Below, piece after piece: positions 13,079-46,633 of a stretch of DNA of 64,000 bases. Origin of the DNA: Gemmatimonadales bacterium. Its GTDB lineage: Bacteria > Gemmatimonadota > Gemmatimonadetes > Gemmatimonadales > GWC2-71-9. The position numbers and the translations under genes are program-made. The notes beneath the pieces are model-generated. The model did not search any database. It was not told the origin of the DNA and saw only the letters and a program-made list of their open reading frames with translations. The DNA lies in the NCBI GenBank assembly GCA_025935995.1, contig JAICUF010000001.1, forward strand, positions 22,484 to 86,483, read 5' to 3'. Position 1 is the stretch's first letter; each line of letters begins with the position of its first letter.

Positions 13079-14641
13079 TCAGATCCGGAGGATGAGCAGC
13101 GTGCGGTCGTCGCGGGGGCCGGCGCTGAACTCCGCCACCTCGTCCATCACCGCGCGGACGATCGCGTCGGGATGCTCGGTCCGGCGCTCGGCCACGGCGG
13201 CGAGGAGGCGCGCCTCGCCGTACGCTTCGCCGTCGTCCCTGCGCGCCTCGATGAGGCCGTCGGTGCAGACGCAGAGCAGCTCGGAGCCCCGCGTCCAGCG
13301 AATGTCGCGCTGCTCGATGCTCGCGGCCGGCGCGAGGCCGAGGGGCGGAGCGGTGGCGGCGAGCCGCTGCGCGGGGCCCGAGCCCGGAATGCGCCAGGCC
13401 CACGCGTGGCCGGCGTTGGCGTAGCAGAGGCGGCCCGACTCGGGCTCGAAGACGCCGTAGAAGACGGTGAGGTACATCTCCGCCGTCGCGAGCTCGGTTT
13501 CGAGCCCGTCGAGCAGGGCCACGAGCGTCTCCTCGGGTGAGCTCGACGCCGCGGCATGGATGCCCGCCGCGGAGAGGACGAGCGCCATGACGAGCGCCGC
13601 GGAGAAGCCGTGGGACGCGACGTCGCCGACCATGACGCCGACCCGGCCGCGGCCGAGGCGGGAGAAGGTGTAGAAATCGCCGCCGACCGATTCGGCGGGC
13701 ACGCAGCGCGCGGCCACCTGCGCGTCACCCTGAAGCACCGAGGGGGACGGAAGGAGCCGGAGCTGCAGGTCATGGGCGAGCTCCAGCTCGCGACGAAGCC
13801 GCTGCTGCCGGCGATCGAGCTGCACGAGACGTGCATTCTCGATCGCGGCACCGATCTGGTTGGCGATCGCCCCGACGAGCTTCCGGTCGCCGTTGGTGAA
13901 GCGGTCGCCGCCGATGCGGTCGGTGAGATTGATGACGCCGACGCAGCGGCCGGGCCCGCCCGGACCCGAGTAGCAGATGGGCACGCTGAGGTAGGCCTCG
14001 CCCCGGTAGCCGCGGTCCTCGCCGCAGGTGCCCGTGTCGTCGGACGGATTGGCCGGATCGTGCGCGAGGATCCGGCGCTCGCGGAAGACGCGGGCGGCCA
14101 CCGAGCAGTCGTCGCCCACGGCGACGATCGCCTGGCCCGCGCTGTCGAAGCCGCGCTCCGCCACCGTCCGCAGGAGGCCGCCATCCTCCTCGAAGACCAT
14201 GATCGACGCGCGGCGCGCGCCGACGACGGCGCTCACGTCGCGCACGATGATCTCCGCCGCCTCCTCGAGGCTCACGGTACGGCCGAGGATCTCGCTGATG
14301 GCGTAGAGAAGATCGATCTCCTCGTAGCGGCTGGCCAGCTCCTCGGAGAGGAGGGCGCGTTCGCGGGCGGCATCGAGGACGATGCCGACGAGGGGGAGGA
14401 TGCGCCGGGCGGCATCCTCGGCGTCGGCGCCGCTCGCGGTGTCCACCTCCAGCCAGAAGGAGGGCGCGTCGGGCACCGGCAGCAGCCACGACGCACCGTC
14501 GGGGCCGGGCACGGGCGCCGTTCCCTGCGGCGCCTCGGGCGCGGCGCCCGGATCGGCGCCGGCCGCCAGCCGGAGGCGCGACCCGTCGGAACGCCAGAGG
14601 CGAACCGGCGCGCCGGCGAGCGCGCCGAGTCCCTCGAGCAT
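13079..14641 (-). CDS. GAF-domain PP2C (SpoIIE/RsbU-type) serine phosphatase
   Basis: 520 aa. The central GAF-like region is EIDLLYAISEILGRT...VGVINLTDR...AIANQIGAAIENARL. The C-terminal PP2C domain is ELELAHDLQLRLLP...VGGDFYTF...VMVGDVASHG...NAGH...LCVCTDGLIEA...DDRTLLILRI. Confidence 0.85.
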   Translation of the reverse strand: MLEGLGALAGAPVRLWRSDGSRLRLAAGADPGAAPEAPQGTAPVPGPDGASWLLPVPDAPSFWLEVDTASGADAEDAARRILPLVGIVLDAARERALLSEELASRYEEIDLLYAISEILGRTVSLEEAAEIIVRDVSAVVGARRASIMVFEEDGGLLRTVAERGFDSAGQAIVAVGDDCSVAARVFRERRILAHDPANPSDDTGTCGEDRGYRGEAYLSVPICYSGPGGPGRCVGVINLTDRIGGDRFTNGDRKLVGAIANQIGAAIENARLVQLDRRQQRLRRELELAHDLQLRLLPSPSVLQGDAQVAARCVPAESVGGDFYTFSRLGRGRVGVMVGDVASHGFSAALVMALVLSAAGIHAAASSSPEETLVALLDGLETELATAEMYLTVFYGVFEPESGRLCYANAGHAWAWRIPGSGPAQRLAATAPPLGLAPAASIEQRDIRWTRGSELLCVCTDGLIEARRDDGEAYGEARLLAAVAERRTEHPDAIVRAVMDEVAEFSAGPRDDRTLLILRI

Positions 14642-14655
14642 GTGGTCGAGGCGGC

Positions 14656-15120
14656 CTACCGGCGGCGCAGTGTCATGCAGATGGAGTTACCCCGGTCGTT
14701 GAATTCGACGGCGTCGGCGAGCTTGCGGATGAGAAAGAGGCCGCGGCCACCGGCGCCCTGGATGCCGTCCGGGCCCAGCGGCTCCGGCACGGCGTGGGGA
14801 TCGAAGCCCGCGCCCTCGTCGGTCACGTGGACGCGGATCGCGTCGGGCGCCAGCTCGACCCGCACCGACGCGCGCTTGTCCGCGTCCTCGTGATTGCCGC
14901 GCAGAATGGCGTTGGCGAGGGCCTCGGACAGCGCGACCTGCAGCCGGAAGCGCATCCGCTCCTCCACGGCCACGCCCGCGAAGCAGTGGCGCGCGACGAG
15001 CGCGACGGCCTCCTCGATGCATCCCACGTCGCTCGGCACGGAGACCGAGACGACGACATCGGGCCCCTCGCCGCCCGCGGCGGGGCGGCGGCGGACACAG
15101 AGTCGGAGCGGCGACGTCAT
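14656..15120 (-). CDS. Anti-sigma-factor-type serine kinase (RsbW/SpoIIAB-like HATPase)
   Basis: 154 aa. N-box LSEALANAILRGNH, G1 box VTDEGAGFD, G2 box GGRGLFLIRKLAD. Confidence 0.85.
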   Translation of the reverse strand: MTSPLRLCVRRRPAAGGEGPDVVVSVSVPSDVGCIEEAVALVARHCFAGVAVEERMRFRLQVALSEALANAILRGNHEDADKRASVRVELAPDAIRVHVTDEGAGFDPHAVPEPLGPDGIQGAGGRGLFLIRKLADAVEFNDRGNSICMTLRRR

Positions 15121-36145: not shown

Positions 36146-36219
36146 GGGCGATTAGCTCAGCTGGTTAGAGCGCGCGCCTCACATGCGCGAGGTCGGGGGT
36201 TCGATCCCCTCATCGCCCA
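36146..36219 (+). tRNA. tRNA-Val (anticodon CAC)
   Basis: Hand-folded cloverleaf: GGGCGAT TA GCTC AGCTGGTTA GAGC G CGCGC CTCACAT GCGCG AGGTC GGGGG TTCGATC CCCTC ATCGCCC A. All four stems pair. CCA is not encoded. Confidence 0.92.
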
Positions 36220-36260: not shown

Positions 36261-36686
36261 TCATGCCGCCCCGCTGAGGCTGGCGGCCGCGGGCCTCAGG
36301 GGCGCATCCGGCTGCGAGCTCGTCAGGGTGCGCACGCAGTCGATGAGCTCCGCCGCCGTGAACGGCTCGGTCAGGGTGGGGATGTCCGAGGGAAGCCCCG
36401 CGTGGCGGTGGGTGTCGATATGCAGGATCGACAACGCGGGATGCCGTGCGCGAACACCGGCGATCAGCGCGACGCTGTTCAGTCCGTCAACGTGCGTGTT
36501 CAGAATCAGGAGCGTGATGTCGGGCAGCTGGGCACAGAGCTCGACCGCGGCCTGGCCATCGTAGGCCTGGAATACCCGGTAGCCTTCCATCCGGAGCACC
36601 CCGGAGACCGAGACGAGGATCGGATTCGAGTCGAGCACGATGATGCGCGCCCCGTTGGGGAGCGCCGCAGAACTCCGGGAAGACAC
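36261..36686 (-). CDS. Stand-alone degenerate (pseudo-)receiver domain protein
   Basis: C-terminal 141 aa of ORF 36261..37616, taken from in-frame GTG 36684-36686. CheY-like fold pattern ARIIVLDSNPIL...ITLLILNTHVDGLN...SILHIDTH...LTEPFTAAEL. The acceptor Asp position reads Asn and the conserved Lys reads Glu. The start codon is uncertain. Confidence 0.65.
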   Translation of the reverse strand: MSSRSSAALPNGARIIVLDSNPILVSVSGVLRMEGYRVFQAYDGQAAVELCAQLPDITLLILNTHVDGLNSVALIAGVRARHPALSILHIDTHRHAGLPSDIPTLTEPFTAAELIDCVRTLTSSQPDAPLRPAAASLSGAA

Positions 36687-36751
36687 GTTGGACCTTGGAT
36701 CCGGCGGGGGACAGCCGGAAGTGGCAATGTAGCGGGACCGCGGAAGGCGAA

Positions 36752-36783
36752 CTGCAGGTGCAGGGGGGCGTCTGCACCTGCAG
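36752..36783. repeat. Perfect 12-bp inverted repeat CTGCAGGTGCAG-N8-CTGCACCTGCAG in the channel/receiver intergenic region
   Basis: Read directly: 36752-36763 is the exact reverse complement of 36772-36783. Confidence 0.85.
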
Positions 36784-36838
36784 GCAATATACCACCTTCC
36801 GGCCCCCCGCGTGCGGCGGGCGACTCCGCCGCCGACGC

Positions 36839-37651
36839 TCAGGCTCCCGCCGTTCCCCGCCCCGCCCCATCCGTCAGCGGCCTGAGCTGATCCCGGAGCG
36901 CCGCGATCTCCTGACGCAACGCCTCGATGCTCTTCTGGCCGGCCACGTCGGCATCGGGGCTGTCCGCGTCGCGGTCCACGAAGAATGATGCGAGCGAGGC
37001 CGTCACGTACCCGAGGATGGTGAACGCGTAGATGGACAGGAGGAGACAGAGCGCCCGCCCCTCGACTGTGCGCGGCCAGTACTCGGATCCCATCGTGGTC
37101 ATGATCATCGCCGTCCACCAGAGCGCCGCGCCGTAGTCGTGGATTCCGCCGCCGGCGACGCCGGACTCGAAGGCGTACATGCCGGCCGCACCGCCGAAGA
37201 TCACGAGCACGGTGAGGATGAGGACGTACGCCAGCCCGCGCCGCCCCATGCTCCGCCGGAGCGCGTTCATCCCCCGGTTGAGTGACCCGATCACCCGGAC
37301 GAGCCGGAAGCCGCGCGCCCCCGCGGCGATCCGCGCCAGACGTGCGACCCGAAGCACGCGCAGGACCCGCAGCGCCGGCACGAGCAGGGAGAGCGCACCG
37401 AGCCAGTTCCGCCTGAGGAACTGGCGCTTGTCGGGCGCGATGGTCAGGCGGATGGCGAAGTCGGCGATGAAGATGACCCAGATGAGGGTCGAGAGCGTCG
37501 CGAGGAGGCCGTTGAGCCCCTTCGTGAGGTCGAGCACGAGGAGCCCGAGCCAGATGAAGCCGAGCACCTGCATCGGCACCTCGAGCCAATCCTCGAGCTC
37601 CGCGAGGAGGGCCCACCGCTCGGGCTGCGCGTCGTTGTTCACGTCCGGCAC
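36839..37651 (-). CDS. Voltage-gated-type tetrameric cation channel subunit (Ion_trans family) with a non-canonical pore signature
   Basis: About 270 aa from GTG 37649-37651. S4-like helix LRVLRVLRVARLARIAAGARGFRLVRV has Arg at every third position. Pore helix and filter read ALWWTAMIMTTMGSEYWP. S6 is LCLLLSIYAFTILGYVTASLASFF. The C-terminal coiled coil is SIEALRQEIAALRDQL. Confidence 0.72.
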   Translation of the reverse strand: MPDVNNDAQPERWALLAELEDWLEVPMQVLGFIWLGLLVLDLTKGLNGLLATLSTLIWVIFIADFAIRLTIAPDKRQFLRRNWLGALSLLVPALRVLRVLRVARLARIAAGARGFRLVRVIGSLNRGMNALRRSMGRRGLAYVLILTVLVIFGGAAGMYAFESGVAGGGIHDYGAALWWTAMIMTTMGSEYWPRTVEGRALCLLLSIYAFTILGYVTASLASFFVDRDADSPDADVAGQKSIEALRQEIAALRDQLRPLTDGAGRGTAGA

Positions 37652-37715
37652 CGTCCGCTCCCTGAAGTTGGTGCTCCAGGCTAGCGGCGGGCCGCGCGTC
37701 ACGGCGTGAGGGCCG

Positions 37716-39620
37716 TCACGGGCGCTGAGGAAGCCGCTGGATCGCGGCGAGCAGGTCGGACGGAGCGAACGGCTTCTGGATGAACGCCTCATCCGCCGGA
37801 AGGAGACCCTGCCGAATGATCTCGTCGTTCGTGTATCCGCTCATGAAGAGCATCGGCACGCCGGGCCAGCGCTCGCGGATCTGGATCGCGAGCTCGCTCC
37901 CGCCCATGCGCGGCATGATCACGTCCGAGACCACCGCGGTGACGCCGCCGTGCAGGCGCTCCATCACCCCGAGCGCCTGGTGCCCGTCGCCGGCAGCCTC
38001 GACGCGGTAGCCCGCCTGCATGAGGCCGCGCTGCAGCAGCGAGGCGACCATCGGCTCGTCCTCGACCAGCAGTATCGTCCCCAGCGCACCCGCCGCCGCC
38101 GGACGGCGCTCGATACGGGGCGGCGTCGGCGCCTCCGGGAGCCGCGGCAGCTGGATGGTGAACGTCGCTCCGCGTCCCGGCTCGCTCGCCGCCCAGATGT
38201 AACCGTCGGACTGCTTTACCATCCCGAACACGGTGGAAAGCCCGAGCCCTGTGCCTTCTCCGACGCCCTTCGTGGTGAAGAACGGCTCGAAGACCCGCTC
38301 GAGCGTGCGCGTATCCATGCCGACACCCGTGTCCTGCACATCGATCTGCACGTACGGACCGCGCCGGATGGCGATCTCCGGATAGCGCCGGGCCGTGGCC
38401 TCATTGAGCTCCACGACCGAAGTCCGGATGGTCAGCGTGCCGCCGTTCGGCATCGCGTCGCGGGCGTTGAGGGCGAGGTTCACGAGCACCTGCTCGAGGC
38501 CCACCGGGTCCACCATCACCCAGTCGCCGGCGGCCGCGGCGTCGACCCGCAGCTCGCGTCCCGCGCCGAGCAGGCGGCCGAGGGTCCCGGCGAGCGACCG
38601 AAGCACCGCCTTCACCTCCGTCGGGCGCGGCTGCATCACCTGCCGCCGGCTGAAGGTGAGGAGTTGCCGCGCCACCTCCGCCGAACGCGCCGCCGCGTGG
38701 TGAATTCCCTCGATCTCGGCGCGGGCCTCCGGGTCCGCCTCGGCGCGCTGGAGCGCGAATTCCGCGTTCGCGAGGATCACGGTCATCATGTTGTTCACTT
38801 CGTGCGCCACGCCACCGGCGAGCCGGCCGGTGGACTCGAGCTGGAGCGCCCGGCGGGCGCGCTCGTCGGCGAGGCGCTCCCGGGTGAGGTCGGTCACGAC
38901 GCAGACCACGTCGCCTCCGCCGTGCCGCTCCGCCGCCATCGGAACGACGCTGAAGCGAAGCCACCGGTCATTGAGCTCGAGTCGGGCCGTGTCCCCCCCA
39001 CCGGGAAGGCGGAGCACCGGCGGCTCGGCGGAGAGCTCGGCACCGGGGATGAGGTCGGCGACGCATGCCGTATCGGCGGCCCCCGCGTCGAGGCCGAGCA
39101 GCTTGAGGAAGGCGCGGTTGTGCCGCGTGATCCGCCCCGCGGCGTCGGCGATGCAGACGCCCTCCCCGATCGCGTCGAAGGCGGCGCTCCAGTCGCGCGC
39201 GAGGGCGTTGGCCTGACGCTCCGCGCCGCGGGCCCGGAGGAGCGCGCGGACACTCGCCACCATCACCGGCGGATCGATCGGATGCGTGAGGTAGCCGTCG
39301 GCGCCGTTGTCGAGGCCGCGTACCTTGCTATCGGCGCCGGTGAAGCTGGCGGAGATGTGCAGAATGGGGATGTCCGCCGTGCGCGGATCCTGCCGGAGCC
39401 GCCGCGTCACCTCGAAGCCGCTGATGTCCGGCAGCCGCACGTCGAGAATGATCAGGTCCGGCTCGTCGGCGACGGCACCGGCCAGCGCGTCCTGGCCGGT
39501 GGCGGCCTCCGTGACCCGGAAGTCGTTCGCCTGCAGGTGGCGGGAGACGGCGTAGCGGTTCGCATCGGTATCGTCGACCACGAGGATGCGGGCGCCGTGA
39601 GTGGGATGCAGATCAGCCAT
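37716..39620 (-). CDS. Hybrid sensor histidine kinase (REC-PAS-HisKA-HATPase-REC)
   Basis: 634 aa. N-terminal REC is RILVVDDTDANR...LIILDVRLPD...ILHISAS. PAS is WSAAFDAIGEGVCIADAAGRITRHNRAF. H-box is GGVAHEVNNMMTVI. HATPase motifs are NLALNARDAM...DTGVGMD...GTGLGLS. C-terminal REC is ILLVEDE...VVSDVIMP...FMSGY...QKPF. Confidence 0.9.
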   Translation of the reverse strand: MADLHPTHGARILVVDDTDANRYAVSRHLQANDFRVTEAATGQDALAGAVADEPDLIILDVRLPDISGFEVTRRLRQDPRTADIPILHISASFTGADSKVRGLDNGADGYLTHPIDPPVMVASVRALLRARGAERQANALARDWSAAFDAIGEGVCIADAAGRITRHNRAFLKLLGLDAGAADTACVADLIPGAELSAEPPVLRLPGGGDTARLELNDRWLRFSVVPMAAERHGGGDVVCVVTDLTRERLADERARRALQLESTGRLAGGVAHEVNNMMTVILANAEFALQRAEADPEARAEIEGIHHAAARSAEVARQLLTFSRRQVMQPRPTEVKAVLRSLAGTLGRLLGAGRELRVDAAAAGDWVMVDPVGLEQVLVNLALNARDAMPNGGTLTIRTSVVELNEATARRYPEIAIRRGPYVQIDVQDTGVGMDTRTLERVFEPFFTTKGVGEGTGLGLSTVFGMVKQSDGYIWAASEPGRGATFTIQLPRLPEAPTPPRIERRPAAAGALGTILLVEDEPMVASLLQRGLMQAGYRVEAAGDGHQALGVMERLHGGVTAVVSDVIMPRMGGSELAIQIRERWPGVPMLFMSGYTNDEIIRQGLLPADEAFIQKPFAPSDLLAAIQRLPQRP

Positions 39621-41001
39621 CGTCGCTCGTGGGGCCGGTCGCGGCCGGTTTGGCGGGAGATTCCTCTTCCGGACACTGCCGCGGGATCCTGAGGATGAAG
39701 GTCGAGCCGATGCCCGGCTCGCTCACCGCGGACAGCGACCCCCCCAGCAGCGCAGCCAGCTTCCGCGAGAGCGGCAGACCGAGGCCCGTGCCAGCGCTGC
39801 GCCGCTGGAGCGGGCTGTCCACCTGGGCGTACTCCTCGAAGATGCGCTCGAGGTCGTCGGGGGCGATGCCGATCCCCGTATCCGCCACGGCCAGGGTCAC
39901 CATGTCCGGCGCCTCGTCGTACGCCGCCGTCACGCGGATCTCGCCGTGCGGCGTGAACCGGATCGCGTTGCTCACGAGATTCCGGAGCACCTGCGACAGC
40001 TTGCCCTCGTCGCTGCACATGCGCCACGGCCAGTCGGGCTGATCCACCGTCAGCGTCACCGCGTCGCCGGTGATCAACGGCCGCGCCATGCCGCGGAGCG
40101 CGCCGAGCAGCTCGGCCACAGTGAACTCGGTCACCCGGAGCACGGTCTTCCCGGCCTCGATCCGCGCGAGATCGAGCAGGTCGTTCACCATGTCACTCAG
40201 GGTGACCGCGGCGCTCTGGATCAGCCGGACCTGATGCTCCTGGCTCGCGGTGAGATCCCCGTCCATGCGGTCCAGCAGCAGGCGCGTGAGGTTCCGGATC
40301 GCGTTGAGCGGCGTCCGGAGCTCGTGGCTTATCCCCGAGAGAAAGTTCGACTTGAGCTCCGAGGCCCGCCCGAGCTGCAGGGCCCGGTCGTCGAGCTCGG
40401 CGTACAGTGCCAGAACGCCGCGATTGGTCTCTGCCAGCTCACCGTTGAGGCGCTCGATCTCGAGCTGCTTCGACCGGAGATCCTCCAGTGCGAGGAGCAG
40501 CTCGCGATTGCGGATCCGGAGTTCGCCCAGTGGATCGGGTGGCGCGGCAGCGGCGATGCTGCGGCCGATCTCCTCGAGGCGCTGGGCGGAGAGCCCGGGA
40601 CATTCGGGCGGCGGCGCCTTCGCGAGGGTCACCGTCGTTCCGCCGTCGCCCGTCGCAAACTCCACGCGGTCCATGAGCCGCCGCGCCGAGAAAATGCCGA
40701 GGCCCGGGCCCGCGGGCGATTGCCAGCGGCCTTCGAGCACCGCCGGGAGATCGGCGATCCCGGGACCCCGATCAGTCACGCGAATGACGCAGGTGCCGTC
40801 AGGGGCCACGGCGTAATGCAGCTCGCCGCCGCCACCGTGCTCACACGCGTTGCGCGCGATCTCGGATACGGCCGCACCGATGCGGACCTGATCCTGGGCT
40901 TCGTATCCCAGCAGGGCAGCGAGCTGGCGAGCCTCCTGGCGGATGCGGACGACGTCCTGGGCATCGCGCATGCTGGTAGAGTGAAGAATGGTTTCGTTCA
41001 T
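39613..41001 (-). CDS. Histidine kinase with an N-terminal RsbT/RsbW-like HATPase module
   Basis: ORF trimmed to ATG 40999-41001, an ATGA overlap with the upstream stop. The N-terminus DVVRIRQEARQLA...RIGAAVSEIARNACEHGGGGE...VTDRGPGI is paralogous to RsbT. A coiled coil follows. HisKA is FLSGISHELRTPLNAI. HATPase motifs are NLVSNAIRFT...DTGIGI...GTGLGLPLS. Confidence 0.85.
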   Translation of the reverse strand: MNETILHSTSMRDAQDVVRIRQEARQLAALLGYEAQDQVRIGAAVSEIARNACEHGGGGELHYAVAPDGTCVIRVTDRGPGIADLPAVLEGRWQSPAGPGLGIFSARRLMDRVEFATGDGGTTVTLAKAPPPECPGLSAQRLEEIGRSIAAAAPPDPLGELRIRNRELLLALEDLRSKQLEIERLNGELAETNRGVLALYAELDDRALQLGRASELKSNFLSGISHELRTPLNAIRNLTRLLLDRMDGDLTASQEHQVRLIQSAAVTLSDMVNDLLDLARIEAGKTVLRVTEFTVAELLGALRGMARPLITGDAVTLTVDQPDWPWRMCSDEGKLSQVLRNLVSNAIRFTPHGEIRVTAAYDEAPDMVTLAVADTGIGIAPDDLERIFEEYAQVDSPLQRRSAGTGLGLPLSRKLAALLGGSLSAVSEPGIGSTFILRIPRQCPEEESPAKPAATGPTSDDG

Positions 41002-42047
41002 GCGGCCCGGCAGACCAGAACCGAGGCGTCGTCGCGTCCCCGGCTGAAGTCGCGATAGAGGAGCCCGGCGACGATGGCGGGGTCGCGGCGCAGGACGCCT
41101 GGATAGCCGTCGGTCTTCCAGTGCGTGGTGAGGCCATCCGATGTCAGCACCAGCTCGGCGCCCACCGGACAGGGGTATGACACTTCCTGAATGCGACCGC
41201 CGTGAAGCCCCACGATCCCGTTCTGGGACACCAGGGTTCTGCTGCCCGCGTCGGAGAGGATGCGTGCCGTGATGTTTCCGACCCCTGCGAACCGAAGCCC
41301 GGTCCCGCCGCCACCGATCTGCGCGACGGCGGCCGCGGCGCCGCGGGTGGACCGAATCCCCTGGTGGAGGCGCTCGAGCAACTCCGCGGGCCCGCGCGCC
41401 AGCGCGGCCTGTTCGGTGAAGATGGCCATGGCAAGGTCCGCCGCTTCCGCGGCGCCGGGACCGTGTCCCAGCCCGTCGACGAGGAGCGCGCTGGTCCCGG
41501 CGTCGTGCTCGACCACCGCCCAGCCGTCGCCGCAGAGCGATTCCCCGGCCACGGGAATGGCAAGCGCGCCGATCACGGGGCCCGCGGCCGGTACACCGCC
41601 GGCCCACACGCGCGCGACCACCGCCGTCCCCTGGCCGGCGGCCGAGAAGATGTCGAACGCATGCGCCACACGCCGCGCCGCGCCGAGGCCGGTCCCCATC
41701 GTGCCGCCGGTGGAAAAGCCGTCCCGAAAGCAGCCGGCCAGATCGCGCATGCCAGGGCCCCGGTCGAGGCAGAGCACCTCGACGCCGCGGGACGGCCCGT
41801 GGCTGAGCGCCCGCAGCACCACCTCCCCGCCCCCGCCGTGCCGCACCACGTTCGTGCCCAGCTCATTGACCACGATGCCCAGCATTCCTATCTCCTCGGA
41901 CCCGAGCCCGAGGCGGGAGGCCAGCGCAGCGGCGGTCCGGCGTGCCTGTCCCACGCCGCTCGGGTCCGCGAGCGACACCACCGTGGACCGCGAGGACGGG
42001 CTGCCGGGGTCCCGGTCAGGACTACCGCCAGCGAACGGCGTCGACAC
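40998..42047 (-). CDS. RsbT/RsbW-like HATPase module fused to a PP2C (SpoIIE/RsbX-type) phosphatase
   Basis: 349 aa. The N-terminus is VGQARRTAAALASRLG...LGIVVNELGTNVVRHGGGGE...LDRGPGM...GTGLGAARR. The C-terminus is GESLCGDGW...LLVDGLGHGPGAAEA...VGNI...LVLTSDGL. The GTG start at 42047 is assumed and overlaps rsbT by 26 nt. The GTG at 41981 is an alternative. Confidence 0.8.
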   Translation of the reverse strand: MSTPFAGGSPDRDPGSPSSRSTVVSLADPSGVGQARRTAAALASRLGLGSEEIGMLGIVVNELGTNVVRHGGGGEVVLRALSHGPSRGVEVLCLDRGPGMRDLAGCFRDGFSTGGTMGTGLGAARRVAHAFDIFSAAGQGTAVVARVWAGGVPAAGPVIGALAIPVAGESLCGDGWAVVEHDAGTSALLVDGLGHGPGAAEAADLAMAIFTEQAALARGPAELLERLHQGIRSTRGAAAAVAQIGGGGTGLRFAGVGNITARILSDAGSRTLVSQNGIVGLHGGRIQEVSYPCPVGAELVLTSDGLTTHWKTDGYPGVLRRDPAIVAGLLYRDFSRGRDDASVLVCRAA

Positions 42048-42426
42048 GCGTGCCCTTCCCCGGCCTGGACTCGATACGGAGGTCGTTCATGAGGCGACGC
42101 GCGCCCCCGAGGCCGAGGCCGAGCCCATGGCCGGTGGTGTAGCCGTCGCGAAGCGCGAGCTCGATATCCGGAATGCCCGGCCCCTCGTCCTCGAACAGCA
42201 TGCGGAGCCCGGTGCGCCCGGGCTCCGTGAGCAGCTCGATGGTGGCCCGCCCGCCACCGCCATAGTCGAGTGTATTGCGCGCGAGCTCGCTCGCGGCCGT
42301 CACGATCCGCGTCTGGTCCACGAGGTTGAATCCGGCCTCCTGGGCCCGTGTGCGCACCAGCTGGCGGACGGCGACGACATCACTCGCGCTTCGGACCGCC
42401 AGCGCATCAGTCCGCTGGACCGGCAT
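42022..42426 (-). CDS. rsbT: Stressosome serine/threonine kinase RsbT
   Basis: 134 aa: VRSASDVVAVRQLVRTRAQEAGFNLVDQTRIVTAASELARNTLDYGGGG...FEDEGPGIPD...GHGLGLGLGGARRLMND. Confidence 0.85.
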   Translation of the reverse strand: MPVQRTDALAVRSASDVVAVRQLVRTRAQEAGFNLVDQTRIVTAASELARNTLDYGGGGRATIELLTEPGRTGLRMLFEDEGPGIPDIELALRDGYTTGHGLGLGLGGARRLMNDLRIESRPGKGTRVDAVRWR

Positions 42427-42826
42427 CCAAGCCCTCGTCCGCGGCGGACGGTTGGTCCAGCTCCCCGGCGGCGTGGAGGACCGCGCGCAGGAGAAGCATG
42501 CCCCGCTCCACGGTCAGCGCGGTGCGGACACCGGGCAGGTCGAGCCCCAGCTCCACCAGCGTGATCGCCACCGCCGGCTGCATCCCCGTCACCACGGTCT
42601 GTGCGTCCAGGATGCGGGCCATGGCGGCGATGTTCGCGATCATCCGGCCGATGAACGAATCGACCATCTCGAGCGCGGAGATGTCGATCAGCACGCCGCG
42701 GGCGCCCGTCTCGGTGATGCGCGCGGTCAGGTCGTCCTGCAGCGCGAGCGCGAGCCGGTCATGCATGTCCACCTGGATCGTGACCAGGAGGAACCGGCCC
42801 ATCTTGAGGATCGGAATGCGCTCCAT
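42407..42826 (-). CDS. rsbS: Stressosome STAS protein RsbS
   Basis: 139 aa: IPILKMGRFLLVTIQVDMHD......GVLIDISALEMVDSFIGRMI...MARILDAQTVVTGMQPAVAITLVELG. The conserved Ser in the VDSF context is present. Confidence 0.85.
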   Translation of the reverse strand: MERIPILKMGRFLLVTIQVDMHDRLALALQDDLTARITETGARGVLIDISALEMVDSFIGRMIANIAAMARILDAQTVVTGMQPAVAITLVELGLDLPGVRTALTVERGMLLLRAVLHAAGELDQPSAADEGLDAGPAD

Positions 42827-42830
42827 GGGT

Positions 42831-43697
42831 TCAGGCCCGCTCGGATCCGGTGGCGCGTCCGAGGGCGTGCCCGGTGCGGCGAAGCGCCAGGCGGAAGGCG
42901 TCGGCCAGGGTGGCCTTCGTATCCACGTTGGTCAGGTCGACGCCAAGATGGACGATCGTGGCCGCAATCTGGGGTCGGATCCCGCTGATGATGCATTCGG
43001 CGCCCATCAACCGCGCGGCGGTGACGGTCTTGATGAGGTGCTGGGCGACGAGGGTGTCCACCGTCGGCACGCCGGTGATGTCGATGATGGCCACCTCCGC
43101 GCCGGTCTGCACGATGCGCTGGAGGAGCGACTCCATGACGACCTGCGTCCGCGCGCTGTCGAGGGTGCCGATCATCGGGAGGGCGAGGATGCCGTCCCAC
43201 AGCTTCACCACGGGCGTCGAGAGCTCGAGCATCTCCTCCTGCTGGCGGGCGATGATGCGCTCGCGTGCCTCGAGAGCCACGGAGGTGGTGTAGAGCGCCA
43301 GCTCGTCGATCAGCGTCGTCATCGACCAGAGCTCGGCGGCGAACCGGGTTGCGTCGCCACTCCGCTGCTGCAGCCGGCCCAGCAGCGCCTGCTTGAGCGA
43401 GAGCACGAACGTCGCCGTGTCAACGGGCGTGAATCCCTGCGCGGCCCGCGAGGAGGAAATCCCCGCCAGGAACTGCCGGACCGCGTGCCACGCGGCCCCG
43501 TCACGAGCTGATCCCGCGTTGACGGCCGCAGCGAGGAGATCGAGAAACTGGCTCGACTGATCCTGCAGCTCGGAGGGCTGCATCAGGTCGGGGCGCGCGG
43601 CGCCGCCGGCCATCTGATCCTGTATCCAGGCCTTGAGGACGTCGCCGCGGTCCTGGTCGAGGACGGTGGCGAGGACGGATGGCTGGCTGGGGGGCAT
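42831..43697 (-). CDS. rsbR: Stressosome sensor RsbR (N-terminal RsbR_N-type sensory domain plus C-terminal STAS)
   Basis: ORF trimmed to ATG 43695-43697 (MPPSQPSVLATVLDQDRGDVLKAWIQ...). The C-terminus ELSTPVVKLWDGILALPMIGTLDSARTQVVMESLL...VAIIDITGVPTVDTLVAQHLIK...GAECIISGIRPQIAATIVHLGVDL aligns almost residue-for-residue with B. subtilis RsbRA as I remember it. Confidence 0.85.
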   Translation of the reverse strand: MPPSQPSVLATVLDQDRGDVLKAWIQDQMAGGAARPDLMQPSELQDQSSQFLDLLAAAVNAGSARDGAAWHAVRQFLAGISSSRAAQGFTPVDTATFVLSLKQALLGRLQQRSGDATRFAAELWSMTTLIDELALYTTSVALEARERIIARQQEEMLELSTPVVKLWDGILALPMIGTLDSARTQVVMESLLQRIVQTGAEVAIIDITGVPTVDTLVAQHLIKTVTAARLMGAECIISGIRPQIAATIVHLGVDLTNVDTKATLADAFRLALRRTGHALGRATGSERA

Positions 43698-43752
43698 GAA
43701 CGCCTCGGAACGTGAACGATGAGGGGGATCGGCGGCGCAAATCGGGAGCGGA

Positions 43753-43781
43753 AAGTTAGGAGGTCCCGATCGAGGCGGCAA
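43753..43781 (-). promoter_or_regulatory. Weak candidate promoter for the rsbR operon (TTGCCG-N17-TAACTT on the minus strand)
   Basis: Hexamers were read on the reverse complement, about 55 nt upstream of the rsbR ATG. This is pattern match only, in a 164-bp region divergent with murB. Confidence 0.25.
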
Positions 43782-43861
43782 CTGCGCCGACGCGGGCTTC
43801 CACCCCTTGGCCCCCGCCCCGCCCCATGCGATTCTAGAGGGCCTTCATCCCGGACCCATCG

Positions 43862-44800
43862 GTGCCGCGAACCGCTTCAGCGCATCTGCCCGGCCTCGAC
43901 CGCTCGCGTCTCGAGCGGAACGTCGCCCTGGCCCCCTACACGACCTTCCGGATCGGCGGTCCGGCGGATCTCTTCTATACGACCACCAGTGCGGACGACC
44001 TCGCCGAGGCCATCCTCGCCGCGCGCGCCGCGGAACTGCCGTTCTTCGTCCTCGGCCTGGGCGCCAACATTCTGGTGGGCGACGGCGGCTTCCGCGGGCT
44101 CGTCATCCGGAATAGCGCCGCACGGCGGGGCTGGGCGGAGGGAGGGATTCTTCGCGCCGAGAGCGGCGCTGTCATGCAGGACCTCGTGCTCGAGTCGGCG
44201 CAGCTCGGCTGGTCTGGACTGGAACACTACATCGGGATCCCGAGCACGGTCGGCGGCGCGATCTGGCAGAACCTGCACTTTCTCTCCCCCGCCCCGGACC
44301 GCGACCGCACCATGTTCATCGCCGACGTCTTCGAGTCGTGCGAGATCCTCTCGGCCGAAGGCGAGCGGACGACCGTCGGCGCCGACTACGTCCGCTTCGG
44401 CTACGACGACAGCGTCTTCCACCACCGCGCCGACTATGTCCTCGGCGCGACCTTCCGCCTCGCGCCGAGCCATCCCGACATCCTGCACAGGATCCATCAG
44501 GAGAATCTGAGCTGGCGCGGCGCGCGTCACCCCTGGCTTGCCATCCATCCGAGCGCGGGATCGATCTTCCGGAAGATCGAGGGCGTCGGCGCCGGACGCC
44601 TGGTGGATCAGTGCGGCCTGAAGGGGGCGACGATCGGCGGCGCGCAGATCTCCCACCTGCACGCCAACATCATCATCAACCTGGGGGGGGCGACCGCCGC
44701 CGACGTGCGCGCCCTCATCGCGCTGGCGCAGCGCGCGGTGGAAGCGAAGTTCGGGCAGCGGCTGGTGCCCGAGATCGGATTCGTCGGCGAGTTCGCCTGA
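43862..44800 (+). CDS. murB: UDP-N-acetylenolpyruvoylglucosamine reductase
   Basis: 312 aa: LAPYTTFRIGGPADLF...FVLGLGANILVGDGGFRGLVI...GIPSTVGGAIWQNLH...PSAGSIFR.......AGRLVDQCGLKG...GGAQIS..HANIIIN. Confidence 0.93.
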   Translation: MPRTASAHLPGLDRSRLERNVALAPYTTFRIGGPADLFYTTTSADDLAEAILAARAAELPFFVLGLGANILVGDGGFRGLVIRNSAARRGWAEGGILRAESGAVMQDLVLESAQLGWSGLEHYIGIPSTVGGAIWQNLHFLSPAPDRDRTMFIADVFESCEILSAEGERTTVGADYVRFGYDDSVFHHRADYVLGATFRLAPSHPDILHRIHQENLSWRGARHPWLAIHPSAGSIFRKIEGVGAGRLVDQCGLKGATIGGAQISHLHANIIINLGGATAADVRALIALAQRAVEAKFGQRLVPEIGFVGEFA

Positions 44801-45755: not shown

Positions 45756-46403
45756 TCATCCCCTCCGGAACAGCTCCGCCCGCCCCGTCGTCTGAGAGTA
45801 GGAGGGGTTGAGCACCTTGTACCATGTGGTCGCGCGGTCGTACGTGTCGGCCTTCCGCTTGGCCACGATGCCCTCCAGATCCAGCTTCTCCGTCGCCTTG
45901 AAGAGCGCGACGCCGTCGCGGTCGATGGTGAGCACCTTCATGACGTGCGCGGTATTGGCCGGCACGGCGAGGTCGAGGAACTGCTTCCGCCGCTCGAGCG
46001 GCAGCCCGCGGAGATCCTGCCCGTCCAGCCAGAGCACGTCGAAGACGGCGTAGGCGACGGTGCTGGTCCGGCGCATGAGCTCCCGGAAGCTGGGACGGCC
46101 GTTCCGGTCGAGCGCGACCACTTCGCCGTCGAGGATGGCGTCGCGCACGTCGAGCTGCTCGCGGAGAATCATGCGCAGCTCGTCGAACCGGTCGAACTCG
46201 CTATCGCGTCGGGAGCGGAGGGTGCAGCCATCACGCGTCAGGTAGGCGAGACCGCGGAAGCCGTCGTACTTGGGCTCGAAGAGCCAGGCGGGATCGTCGA
46301 ACGCGTCGGGCCGGCGCACCGGCGCGATCGGATCGACGTGGGGCAGCTCGACCGCGGGCCGGCGCGCTCGCCGCCGGAGCACGCGGTGGATACGTGGGGA
46401 CAT
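45756..46403 (-). CDS. ATP-dependent DNA ligase, nucleotidyltransferase (adenylation) domain only, with no OB-fold domain
   Basis: 215 aa from ATG 46401-46403, with a strong SD GAGGAG upstream. Motif I WLFEPKYDGFRG, motif III ILDGEVVAL, motif IIIa YAVFDVLWLDG, motif IV LEGIVAKR, motif V TWYKVLN. The protein ends about 15 aa after motif V. Confidence 0.7.
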   Translation of the reverse strand: MSPRIHRVLRRRARRPAVELPHVDPIAPVRRPDAFDDPAWLFEPKYDGFRGLAYLTRDGCTLRSRRDSEFDRFDELRMILREQLDVRDAILDGEVVALDRNGRPSFRELMRRTSTVAYAVFDVLWLDGQDLRGLPLERRKQFLDLAVPANTAHVMKVLTIDRDGVALFKATEKLDLEGIVAKRKADTYDRATTWYKVLNPSYSQTTGRAELFRRG

Positions 46404-46559
46404 GCGGACTCCTCGACCACGGTGATGGCCTGGAGCCCTCCCCACGAGGAGGGCGGGTGCACTCTCCTCGGGAGTATGCGGGCGGACGACGGGTTTGTCT
46501 AGCGCGACCCGGCAGGGACCGGATGCGACGGGAGCGCGGCGTACCGGACTGCGGCGGAG

Positions 46560-46633
46560 TGGCCCCTGTGGGATTCGAACCCACGACCTGACGATTATGA
46601 GTCGTTTGCTCTAACCGACTGAGCTAAGGGGCC
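46560..46633 (-). tRNA. tRNA with CAT anticodon; elongator type, probably tRNA-Ile2 (lysidine-modified) rather than tRNA-Met
   Basis: Reverse complement folds as GGCCCCT TA GCTC AGTCGGTTA GAGC A AACGA CTCATAA TCGTC AGGTC GTGGG TTCGAAT CCCAC AGGGGCC A. It is not an initiator, because there is no GGG/CCC anticodon stem. The acceptor stem GGCCCCT and the D-arm closely match E. coli ileX as I recall it. Confidence 0.88.

Follow-up and report, generated by a model that had tools for sequence, protein, structure and literature searches.

An RsbT-like module on both the RsbX-type phosphatase and the histidine kinase of a stressosome-type operon

The window, a stretch of 64,000 nucleotides from a Gemmatimonadales bacterium (GenBank assembly GCA_025935995.1, contig JAICUF010000001.1, positions 22,484 to 86,483), harbors a stressosome-type operon in which the switch kinase RsbT appears in three versions: one is free-standing, one forms the N-terminal module of a PP2C phosphatase (X_N) and one the N-terminal module of a histidine kinase (HK; module HK_N). 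The preferred reading is that RsbT was duplicated twice, that the copies were fused to these effectors, and that the RsbR/RsbS core is the direct docking site of both phosphatase and HK. This reading is given a probability of about 0.45, slightly short of even.

In Bacillus subtilis, RsbT is held by the core, phosphorylates RsbR and RsbS on stress and departs to activate RsbU via its RsbU_N domain and linker. In the mechanism proposed here, one RsbT copy would be fused to the N-terminus of an RsbX-type reset phosphatase and the second to the N-terminus of the output HK through a helical linker of ~90 residues, both serving as STAS-docking modules that are probably catalytically competent. The HK module would act like RsbT, sitting on the RsbR/RsbS core at rest and being released or repositioned upon STAS phosphorylation after a stimulus. 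Because a continuous coiled coil is proposed to join HK_N to the DHp helices, binding and release would gate HK autophosphorylation and start a His-Asp relay to the neighboring hybrid kinase. The covalent link would take the place of a partner switch to an RsbU_N-type receptor, X_N would recruit PP2C to its phospho-STAS substrates and reset the system, and free RsbT would stay the principal or a competing kinase that sets core occupancy. A hub of RsbR and RsbS that holds three partners is plausible: Arg19 and intact nucleotide-binding motifs persist in all three modules and the α1 surface of RsbT persists in HK_N, although that of X_N has diverged. Rather more doubtful is the fullest form of the proposal, in which three paralogous kinases share the core as their platform, the output HK is a stressosome client with its RsbT-derived head on the STAS lattice, and the signal passes through a coiled coil of 60-90 residues to gate His autophosphorylation.

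Kinship and functional residues of the three modules

The three modules are closer to one another than to other proteins of the same superfamily in the window. In pairwise BLASTP comparisons RsbT and HK_N share 40% identity (E 2e-20), RsbT and X_N 32% (E 7e-12), and X_N and HK_N 29% (E 2e-13), whereas the canonical catalytic domains of the operon's two HKs match the modules at E 1e-4 to ~1 and the fourth HATPase_c_2 protein of the window (14656-15120) at E 6e-7 to no match. The operon RsbT itself is 48-50% identical to B. subtilis RsbT (E 8e-42). The B. subtilis reference sequences (RsbT, RsbW, SpoIIAB and RsbS) were each verified as exact database entries, and for each fused module 75 orthologues went into a family hidden Markov model (HMM). 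The X_N HMM scores 104 bits with B. subtilis RsbT, 90 with the window RsbT, 57 with HK_N, 26 with SpoIIAB, 22 with RsbW and 8 with the RsbW-like protein of the window; for the HK_N HMM the values are 128, 116, 61 (with X_N), 47, 25 and 15. By these scores neither fused module is closer to the RsbT of its own operon than to B. subtilis RsbT. Pairwise BLASTP and HMM scores both reject a generic Bergerat-fold likeness as the cause of the similarity.

In a mean-distance matrix and a neighbor-joining (NJ) tree, RsbT, X_N and HK_N all group with B. subtilis RsbT. Bootstrapping recovers the RsbT clade in 93% and the X_N clade in 94% of replicates, with HK_N monophyletic in only 50%; the three modules together with B. 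subtilis RsbT stand apart from RsbW, SpoIIAB and the HK catalytic domains at 66%. The bootstrap gives no resolution of the order among the three (58% for RsbT and X_N with B. subtilis RsbT, 31% for RsbT and HK_N with it), and therefore no claim is made as to which duplication was first. However, each fused module resembles RsbT more than it resembles the other fused module, and the cross scores of 57-61 bits favor two ancient, independent offshoots of an RsbT-like ancestor over a serial chain. By these measures the three modules are true RsbT switch kinase paralogues. Their kinship beyond generic HATPases had been proposed by the first-pass annotation from a shared collinear N-terminal pattern; the pairwise alignments and the tree with RsbT, RsbW and SpoIIAB bear it out, the pattern is visible in a MAFFT alignment of the three modules, and the three open reading frames (ORFs) had been placed correctly (minus strand, Table 1).

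Functional residues were surveyed in 76 sequences of each module, aligned to B. subtilis RsbT and given in its numbering. E45 and N49 (N-box), D78, G80 and G82 (G1), G101 and G103 (G2), and R19 are conserved in 100% of all three families; R109 is present in 97% of RsbT, 100% of X_N and 93% of HK_N sequences, and G123 and T124 are nearly invariant. D78 is the kinase-dead position of B. subtilis RsbT. In the window proteins, E62, N66, D95, G97, G99 and R36 of X_N are invariant and R21, R25, E47, N51, D77, G79 and G81 of HK_N are conserved. Decay of X_N or HK_N into a pseudokinase is rejected, as the ATP-binding and catalytic residues are intact.

The surfaces also compare closely, in part. Arg19, the arginine with which kinases of this family contact their STAS partner, is conserved in RsbW and SpoIIAB as well, R20 of SpoIIAB being the residue that aligns with R19. 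Hardwick and co-workers are said to have found, in 2007, that the RsbT surfaces for RsbU and for the stressosome overlap. In B. subtilis RsbT, the residues R19, R23 and N24 are placed within the partner-binding interface (as relayed in PMC12143880, citing Hardwick 2007). R23 is kept in 100% of RsbT and 93% of HK_N sequences and is lost in X_N, whereas position 24 is not constant in the family's free RsbT either. HK_N retains the α1/α2 surface of RsbT (D14, V16, R19, Q20, R23, Q36, S44 and R48, each conserved in at least 85%). X_N carries its own conserved version of the α1 face, with S13, G16, E17, A18, R19 and R20. The lid motif D92-G93-(Y/F)-(S/T)-T is common to RsbT and X_N.

The phosphatase, the histidine kinase and the conserved cassette

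The PP2C domain is RsbX/MtX-like by sequence. Its best matches in the PDB are MtX (3ZT9, 4.6e-13) and RsbX (3W40, 2.5e-6), the best fold match is again 3ZT9 (Foldseek TM 0.90), and the metal-binding residues D174, D191, D304, D339 and D340 are invariant. The AlphaFold2 (AF2) model of the whole protein is confident (predicted local distance difference test, pLDDT, 90.6; predicted TM score, pTM, 0.90) and leaves only ~9 residues between X_N and PP2C, which suggests a compact two-domain enzyme. RsbX and MtX, with PDB chains of 199 and 193 aa, have no counterpart of the additional N-terminal domain in those chains. The NCBI name of the protein is already 'ATP-binding SpoIIE family protein phosphatase'.

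The HK has the H-box in DHp and the HATPase_c domain of a HisKA-type kinase, and H226 is invariant. In its AF2 model (pLDDT 84.5) the RsbT-like domain (residues 1-128) is followed by a short helix (139-152) and then by a continuous helix (157-244) that runs on as DHp helix 1. Because the model puts the module ahead of one long helix into DHp, HK_N is predicted to occupy the usual position of a sensor domain. The linker lacks a Pfam match and carries an invariant, Arg-containing motif, ELAETNRGVLALYAELD (near 40428), which could be a contact for RsbT or could set the register of the signaling helix. The TNRGV motif of the linker occurs exactly once per locus in 80 of 80 loci, always in the HK, and a second copy was not found anywhere in 1.5 Mb of related loci.

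These loci come from a genome scan in which each species was represented by one genome and aligned HK homologues served as the query. The scan gave at least 540 confirmed matches, and the locus statistics refer to the best 80 of them. In 75 of these 80, all components (RsbR, RsbS, RsbT, phosphatase and HK) occur and their order is unchanged; the remaining five run into contig ends. The best 80 loci span, among others, Gemmatimonadota, Acidobacteriota, Cyanobacteria (Nostocales, Microcoleus, Calothrix), Alpha-, Beta-, Gamma- and Deltaproteobacteria, Planctomycetota, Nitrospira, Spirochaetes and Methylomirabilia, and Myxococcota (Archangium) occur among the phosphatase homologues. X_N and PP2C lie in one ORF in 72 of the 75 complete loci (the three exceptions look like frameshifts), HK_N and HK share one in all 75, and free RsbT is a separate gene in 75/75. 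A hybrid kinase of the type REC-(PAS)-HK(-REC) follows the HK in loci scanned, including loci from other phyla. In most lineages the HK bears one or two C-terminal receiver domains (~585-730 aa), whereas the Gemmatimonadales version, including that of the window, is without them. An exhaustive search with HK residues 1-215 returned 232 clusters (50% identity) at E<=1e-30 and 1516 at E<=1e-10. Ten hits of odd length or match position, drawn from the best 150 representatives and scanned with Pfam, showed no effector other than HK on the module with its linker. Some variants of the HK family have a GAF domain inserted between the module with its linker and HisKA (P0345, P0450, P0351).

Since the collinear layout recurs across many phyla, the cassette is an old, conserved family and not a local duplication. 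Of the serial duplication that the first-pass annotation proposed, RsbT paralogy and fusion to different effectors stand, the latter being real and conserved across loci, but a recent, local or chain-like origin does not agree with the ancient layout and the low cross scores between fused modules. The annotation also counted three outputs (none, PP2C and HK). The fusions do differ; however, the 'none' stands for the usual free-standing RsbT, and the PP2C, being a reset phosphatase of the RsbX type, does not count as an alternative output. X_N and HK_N are best described as paralogues of RsbT and not as RsbT proper, because they are covalently fused to effectors in nearly every locus and no RsbU_N is present in the locus.

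Mean identity across phyla is 76% for RsbS, 75% for the STAS domain of RsbR, 59% for RsbT, 53% for HK_N and 43% for X_N. Compared with B. subtilis, the RsbS (46%) and RsbT (~50%) of the family are about equally diverged. Across phyla the STAS domains (42407-43247; loci L001-L080) are ~75% identical, every other cassette component being 38-59% identical.

The six genes of the operon (Table 1) have overlapping or abutting starts and stops, with ATGA-type junctions among them, which fits a single operon. The rsbT start overlaps the rsbS stop, and a small GHKL kinase is thus encoded directly after rsbS. The likely ATG start of RsbR is at 43697, the mechanical ORF reaching back to a TTG at 43781.

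Table 1. Features of the operon, with positions in the window.
Feature	Positions	Strand	Description
Stressosome-type operon	37716-43697	minus	six genes: RsbR, RsbS, RsbT, RsbT-like+PP2C, RsbT-like+HisKA+HATPase_c HK, REC-PAS-HK-REC hybrid kinase
RsbR	42831-43697	minus	RsbRD_N sensor domain (Pfam 5e-22) and STAS (Pfam 3e-14)
RsbS	42407-42826	minus	single STAS domain (Pfam), scaffold protein
RsbT	42022-42426	minus	134 aa, free-standing switch Ser/Thr kinase; HATPase_c and HATPase_c_2 (Pfam; HATPase_c_2 at residues 16-129)
RsbT-like+PP2C phosphatase protein	40998-42047	minus	349 aa; HATPase_c_2 at residues 27-146, SpoIIE/PP2C at 183-314 (Pfam)
X_N, RsbT-like module of the phosphatase	41598-41990	minus	residues ~20-150; HATPase_c_2 1e-11
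RsbX-type PP2C domain	41001-41576	minus	residues ~158-349 of the 349-aa phosphatase protein
RsbT-like+HK	39613-41001	minus	462 aa; HATPase_c_2 at residues 14-128, HisKA 217-284, HATPase_c 331-441 (Pfam)
HK_N, RsbT-like module of the HK	40612-41001	minus	HK residues 1-130; HATPase_c_2 3e-20
HK linker	40357-40611	minus	HK residues 131-215; short helix, then long helix running into DHp; motif ELAETNRGVLALYAELD
HK catalytic core, HisKA+HATPase_c	39613-40356	minus	Pfam HisKA 1.4e-18, HATPase_c 1.6e-39; H226 in SHELRTP
REC-PAS-HisKA-HATPase_c-REC hybrid kinase	37716-39620	minus	634 aa (Pfam); start overlaps HK stop

Tight gene coupling and collinearity bear on the least probable of the alternatives, which is given little weight: that the fused modules are cis-regulatory domains for nucleotide binding (sensing of energy or of ATP/ADP) or for dimerization, linked to RsbRST by gene neighborhood only. 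Nucleotide-binding residues are indeed the most conserved feature of the modules, and fusions of HATPase_c_2 with PP2C are found in unrelated systems, for example Rv1364c (PDB 3KE6); PMC9239204 mentions fusions of PP2C with STYK. However, a link by neighborhood only sits badly with the overlapping start and stop codons, with the strict collinearity with RsbR-RsbS-RsbT across phyla (75/75) and with all parts co-varying as one cassette; nor would it account for the retention of Arg19 and, in HK_N, of the whole RsbT α1 surface.

The RsbR/RsbS core and the choice between explanations

The operon has the gene content expected of a stressosome RsbRST(X) module: an RsbR with sensor and STAS domains, an RsbS with its acceptor serine, an RsbT gene after rsbS, and an RsbX-type PP2C. 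RsbS is 46% identical to its B. subtilis counterpart, and its Ser57, invariant in 75/75 loci, aligns with B. subtilis Ser59. The acceptor motifs of RsbR, LDS (S181) and VDT (T215), are kept unchanged in 72-74 of the 75 related loci. No RsbU, RsbV, RsbW, sigma-B, other sigma factor or single-domain anti-anti-sigma factor is encoded in the operon. Pfam finds no RsbU_N in any operon protein, the search having covered the HK, its linker (the linker up to E 10) and the PP2C protein.

The presence of three acceptors raises the possibility of a division of labor, in which RsbT, X_N and HK_N would each phosphorylate a different one (RsbS S57, RsbR S181 and RsbR T215) and catalysis would tune or adapt the core, rather than effectors being sequestered. 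T205 of B. subtilis differs in regulatory meaning from the other acceptor sites. S181 and T215 correspond to the B. subtilis positions T171 and T205, and the sites S59 and T171 differ in regulatory meaning there (PMC7522486). Such a scheme agrees with the complete N, G1 and G2 boxes and the catalytic Glu in 100% of all three families, with the invariance of the three acceptor residues, and with the distinct conserved α1 face of X_N, which suggests a distinct target. In B. subtilis, however, a single RsbT phosphorylates all these sites, so that three kinases for three sites may be a coincidence of numbers, and the sensor position of the HK module on a long signaling helix is left unexplained. 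A division of labor is considered quite unlikely as the main explanation.

The HK linker and the persistence of free RsbT point to another possibility, that the fused domains are receivers for free RsbT and not for the STAS core. Once released, RsbT would bind the HK (and the phosphatase) by pairing with the paralogous domain, as the GHKL anti-sigma kinases dimerize, and/or by gripping the TNRGV linker helix. The coiled coil would thereby be made rigid, which is the effect of B. subtilis RsbT on the RsbU linker. This is judged unlikely, though less so than the division of labor. In its favor, free RsbT is kept in 75/75 loci and keeps D92 in 98% of sequences, and D92 of B. subtilis RsbT touches Arg91 of the RsbU linker (PMC12143880). 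The invariant motif of the HK linker contains an Arg, and the long AF2 helix from module to DHp has the geometry of linker-mediated activation. Against it, no RsbU_N-like domain is present, a mere docking pad would not be expected to retain E45, N49, D78 and the glycine boxes so strictly, and a linker of this kind is missing from the phosphatase, where the two domains are packed together (pTM 0.90). Furthermore, we know of no documented heterodimer of RsbT-type kinases. Reception of free RsbT and division of labor could both coexist with direct docking.

Direct docking of the fused modules on RsbR/RsbS remains the preferred reading, and several observations weigh against it. Although internally conserved, the α1 face of X_N differs from that of RsbT and has lost R23, and X_N may therefore bind something other than the RsbT site. 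HK_N is without D92, with Gly in 90% of sequences, and so cannot be regarded simply as a tailed RsbT. The fused copies are no substitute for free RsbT, which persists in every locus. Joining a kinase to a phosphatase that acts on the same substrate would, if unregulated, seem to set up a futile cycle. As circumstantial evidence, the strongly constrained STAS domains agree with a surface used by several partners, but their high conservation may have other causes, such as the assembly constraints of the icosahedral core. Mirror-tree correlations of the STAS core with the modules are 0.58-0.60 raw, no higher than with the catalytic domains; raw and partial values lie close together for all modules (0.3-0.6) and give no basis for choosing between mechanisms.

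Known systems, surroundings and significance

Compared with the B. subtilis stressosome, the operon shares an RsbR (non-heme globin N-domain and STAS in B. subtilis), an RsbS with the same acceptor Ser (46%), an RsbT at ~50% identity that keeps the partner-binding residues R19 and R23, and an RsbX-type PP2C. It differs in the absence of RsbU, RsbV, RsbW, sigma-B and RsbU_N, in the RsbT paralogue carried by each of RsbX and the output enzyme, and in a presumed output through a His-Asp phosphorelay. SpoIIAB and RsbW share the fold, the N, G1 and G2 boxes and the conserved Arg with the three modules but are clearly more distant than RsbT, and the operon has neither a sigma factor nor a single-domain anti-anti-sigma factor.

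Stressosomes are widespread outside Bacillales. The existence of RSTX-type modules with a two-component output has been on record since Pane-Farre et al. 2005 (cited by PMC10014275 and PMC9237108). In other stressosomes, RsbU_N is found on diguanylate cyclases or kinases (PMC12143880). However, most downstream signaling proteins lack RsbU_N, and an interaction between RsbT and D1 went undetected in Vibrio (Heinz et al. 2022, PMC9237108); the route from RsbT to two-component outputs without RsbU_N was left open there, with no RsbT receptor known for most non-Bacillus systems. Like the minimal RSTX modules with two-component or c-di-GMP outputs, VvRsbRSTX-D1-D2 of Vibrio vulnificus and MtR/S/T/X/G of Moorella thermoacetica, the window operon has RsbX directly after RsbT and a presumed two-component output, and its PP2C domain is closest to MtX (3ZT9). 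In contrast, PMC9237108 presents RsbX of those systems as a PP2C of one domain (the 3ZT9 chain has 193 aa), and their output proteins have RsbU_N (MtG) or no recognized RsbT receptor (VvD1), whereas in the window both RsbX and the output carry an RsbT-like domain. RsbR of the window has RsbRD_N rather than a heme globin.

A PP2C fused to a HATPase_c_2 kinase is a recognized architecture (PMC9239204). In Rv1364c of Mycobacterium tuberculosis (PAS-PP2C-RsbW-like kinase-STAS, PDB 3KE6), which HK_N matches weakly (E 6e-4), a PP2C and a HATPase_c_2 Ser kinase likewise share one polypeptide. The domain order is nevertheless reversed, the kinase is RsbW-like, STAS is present in cis, and a stressosome core and an HK are absent. 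Given the RSTX two-component modules, the PP2C-HATPase_c_2 fusions and the existing NCBI name of the phosphatase, the parts and the general frame are already known. RsbT-paralogous domains on both RsbX and the output HK are undescribed in the full-text literature searched, where neither a description nor a functional study of such a domain on either protein was found; Pane-Farre et al. 2005 and Quin et al. 2012 lie outside that scope.

The window is ~72% G+C throughout and its nearest protein matches are in Gemmatimonadota. A recent horizontal acquisition of the operon is ruled out on composition, its G+C fraction of ~0.70-0.72 being the same as that of the surroundings. A promoter and terminator scan of 36500-44200 gave nothing exceeding shuffled expectation. 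Long antisense ORFs over the operon (e.g., 485 aa, 39601-41058, plus strand) are consistent with stop-codon-poor DNA of 72% G+C and were not treated as genes. Directly downstream of the hybrid kinase lies an Ion_trans family protein (36839-37792, minus) with a mechanical ORF that overlaps the stop of the kinase gene. A small, degenerate receiver-like ORF (~36261-36685, minus) scores 20.9 bits with Response_reg, below the Pfam cutoff, and has Asn at the acceptor Asp position; a G+C-rich hairpin follows it and adjoins a tRNA-Val (36146-36219). An ORF consisting only of the adenylation domain of an ATP-dependent DNA ligase (229 aa, 45756-46445) adjoins a tRNA-Met (46559-46633, minus). Elsewhere in the window, a second pair resembling a partner-switching system (13079-15120, minus) comprises a 154-aa HATPase_c_2 protein (14656-15120) directly upstream of a 520-aa GAF-PP2C protein (13079-14641), with no STAS gene seen beside it. 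The smaller protein resembles B. subtilis RsbW (33% identity, E 4e-14) and served as the in-genome outgroup.

The family makes the question of how stressosomes signal to two-component systems testable, the receptor for the core being, on the preferred reading, an RsbT copy inside the effector. Genetics should be feasible, since several carriers of the cassette can be cultivated (Bradyrhizobium, Janthinobacterium, Pseudoduganella, Calothrix, Cylindrospermum). A set of three paralogous modules in which the partner-binding helix has diverged to graded extents would also be useful for mapping the determinants of specificity between STAS domains and kinases. If the shared-platform proposal is true, Ser/Thr partner switching and a His-Asp phosphorelay would be combined in one megadalton complex without an RsbU_N adaptor, and stressosomes in general would have a route to two-component outputs that has so far gone unstudied.

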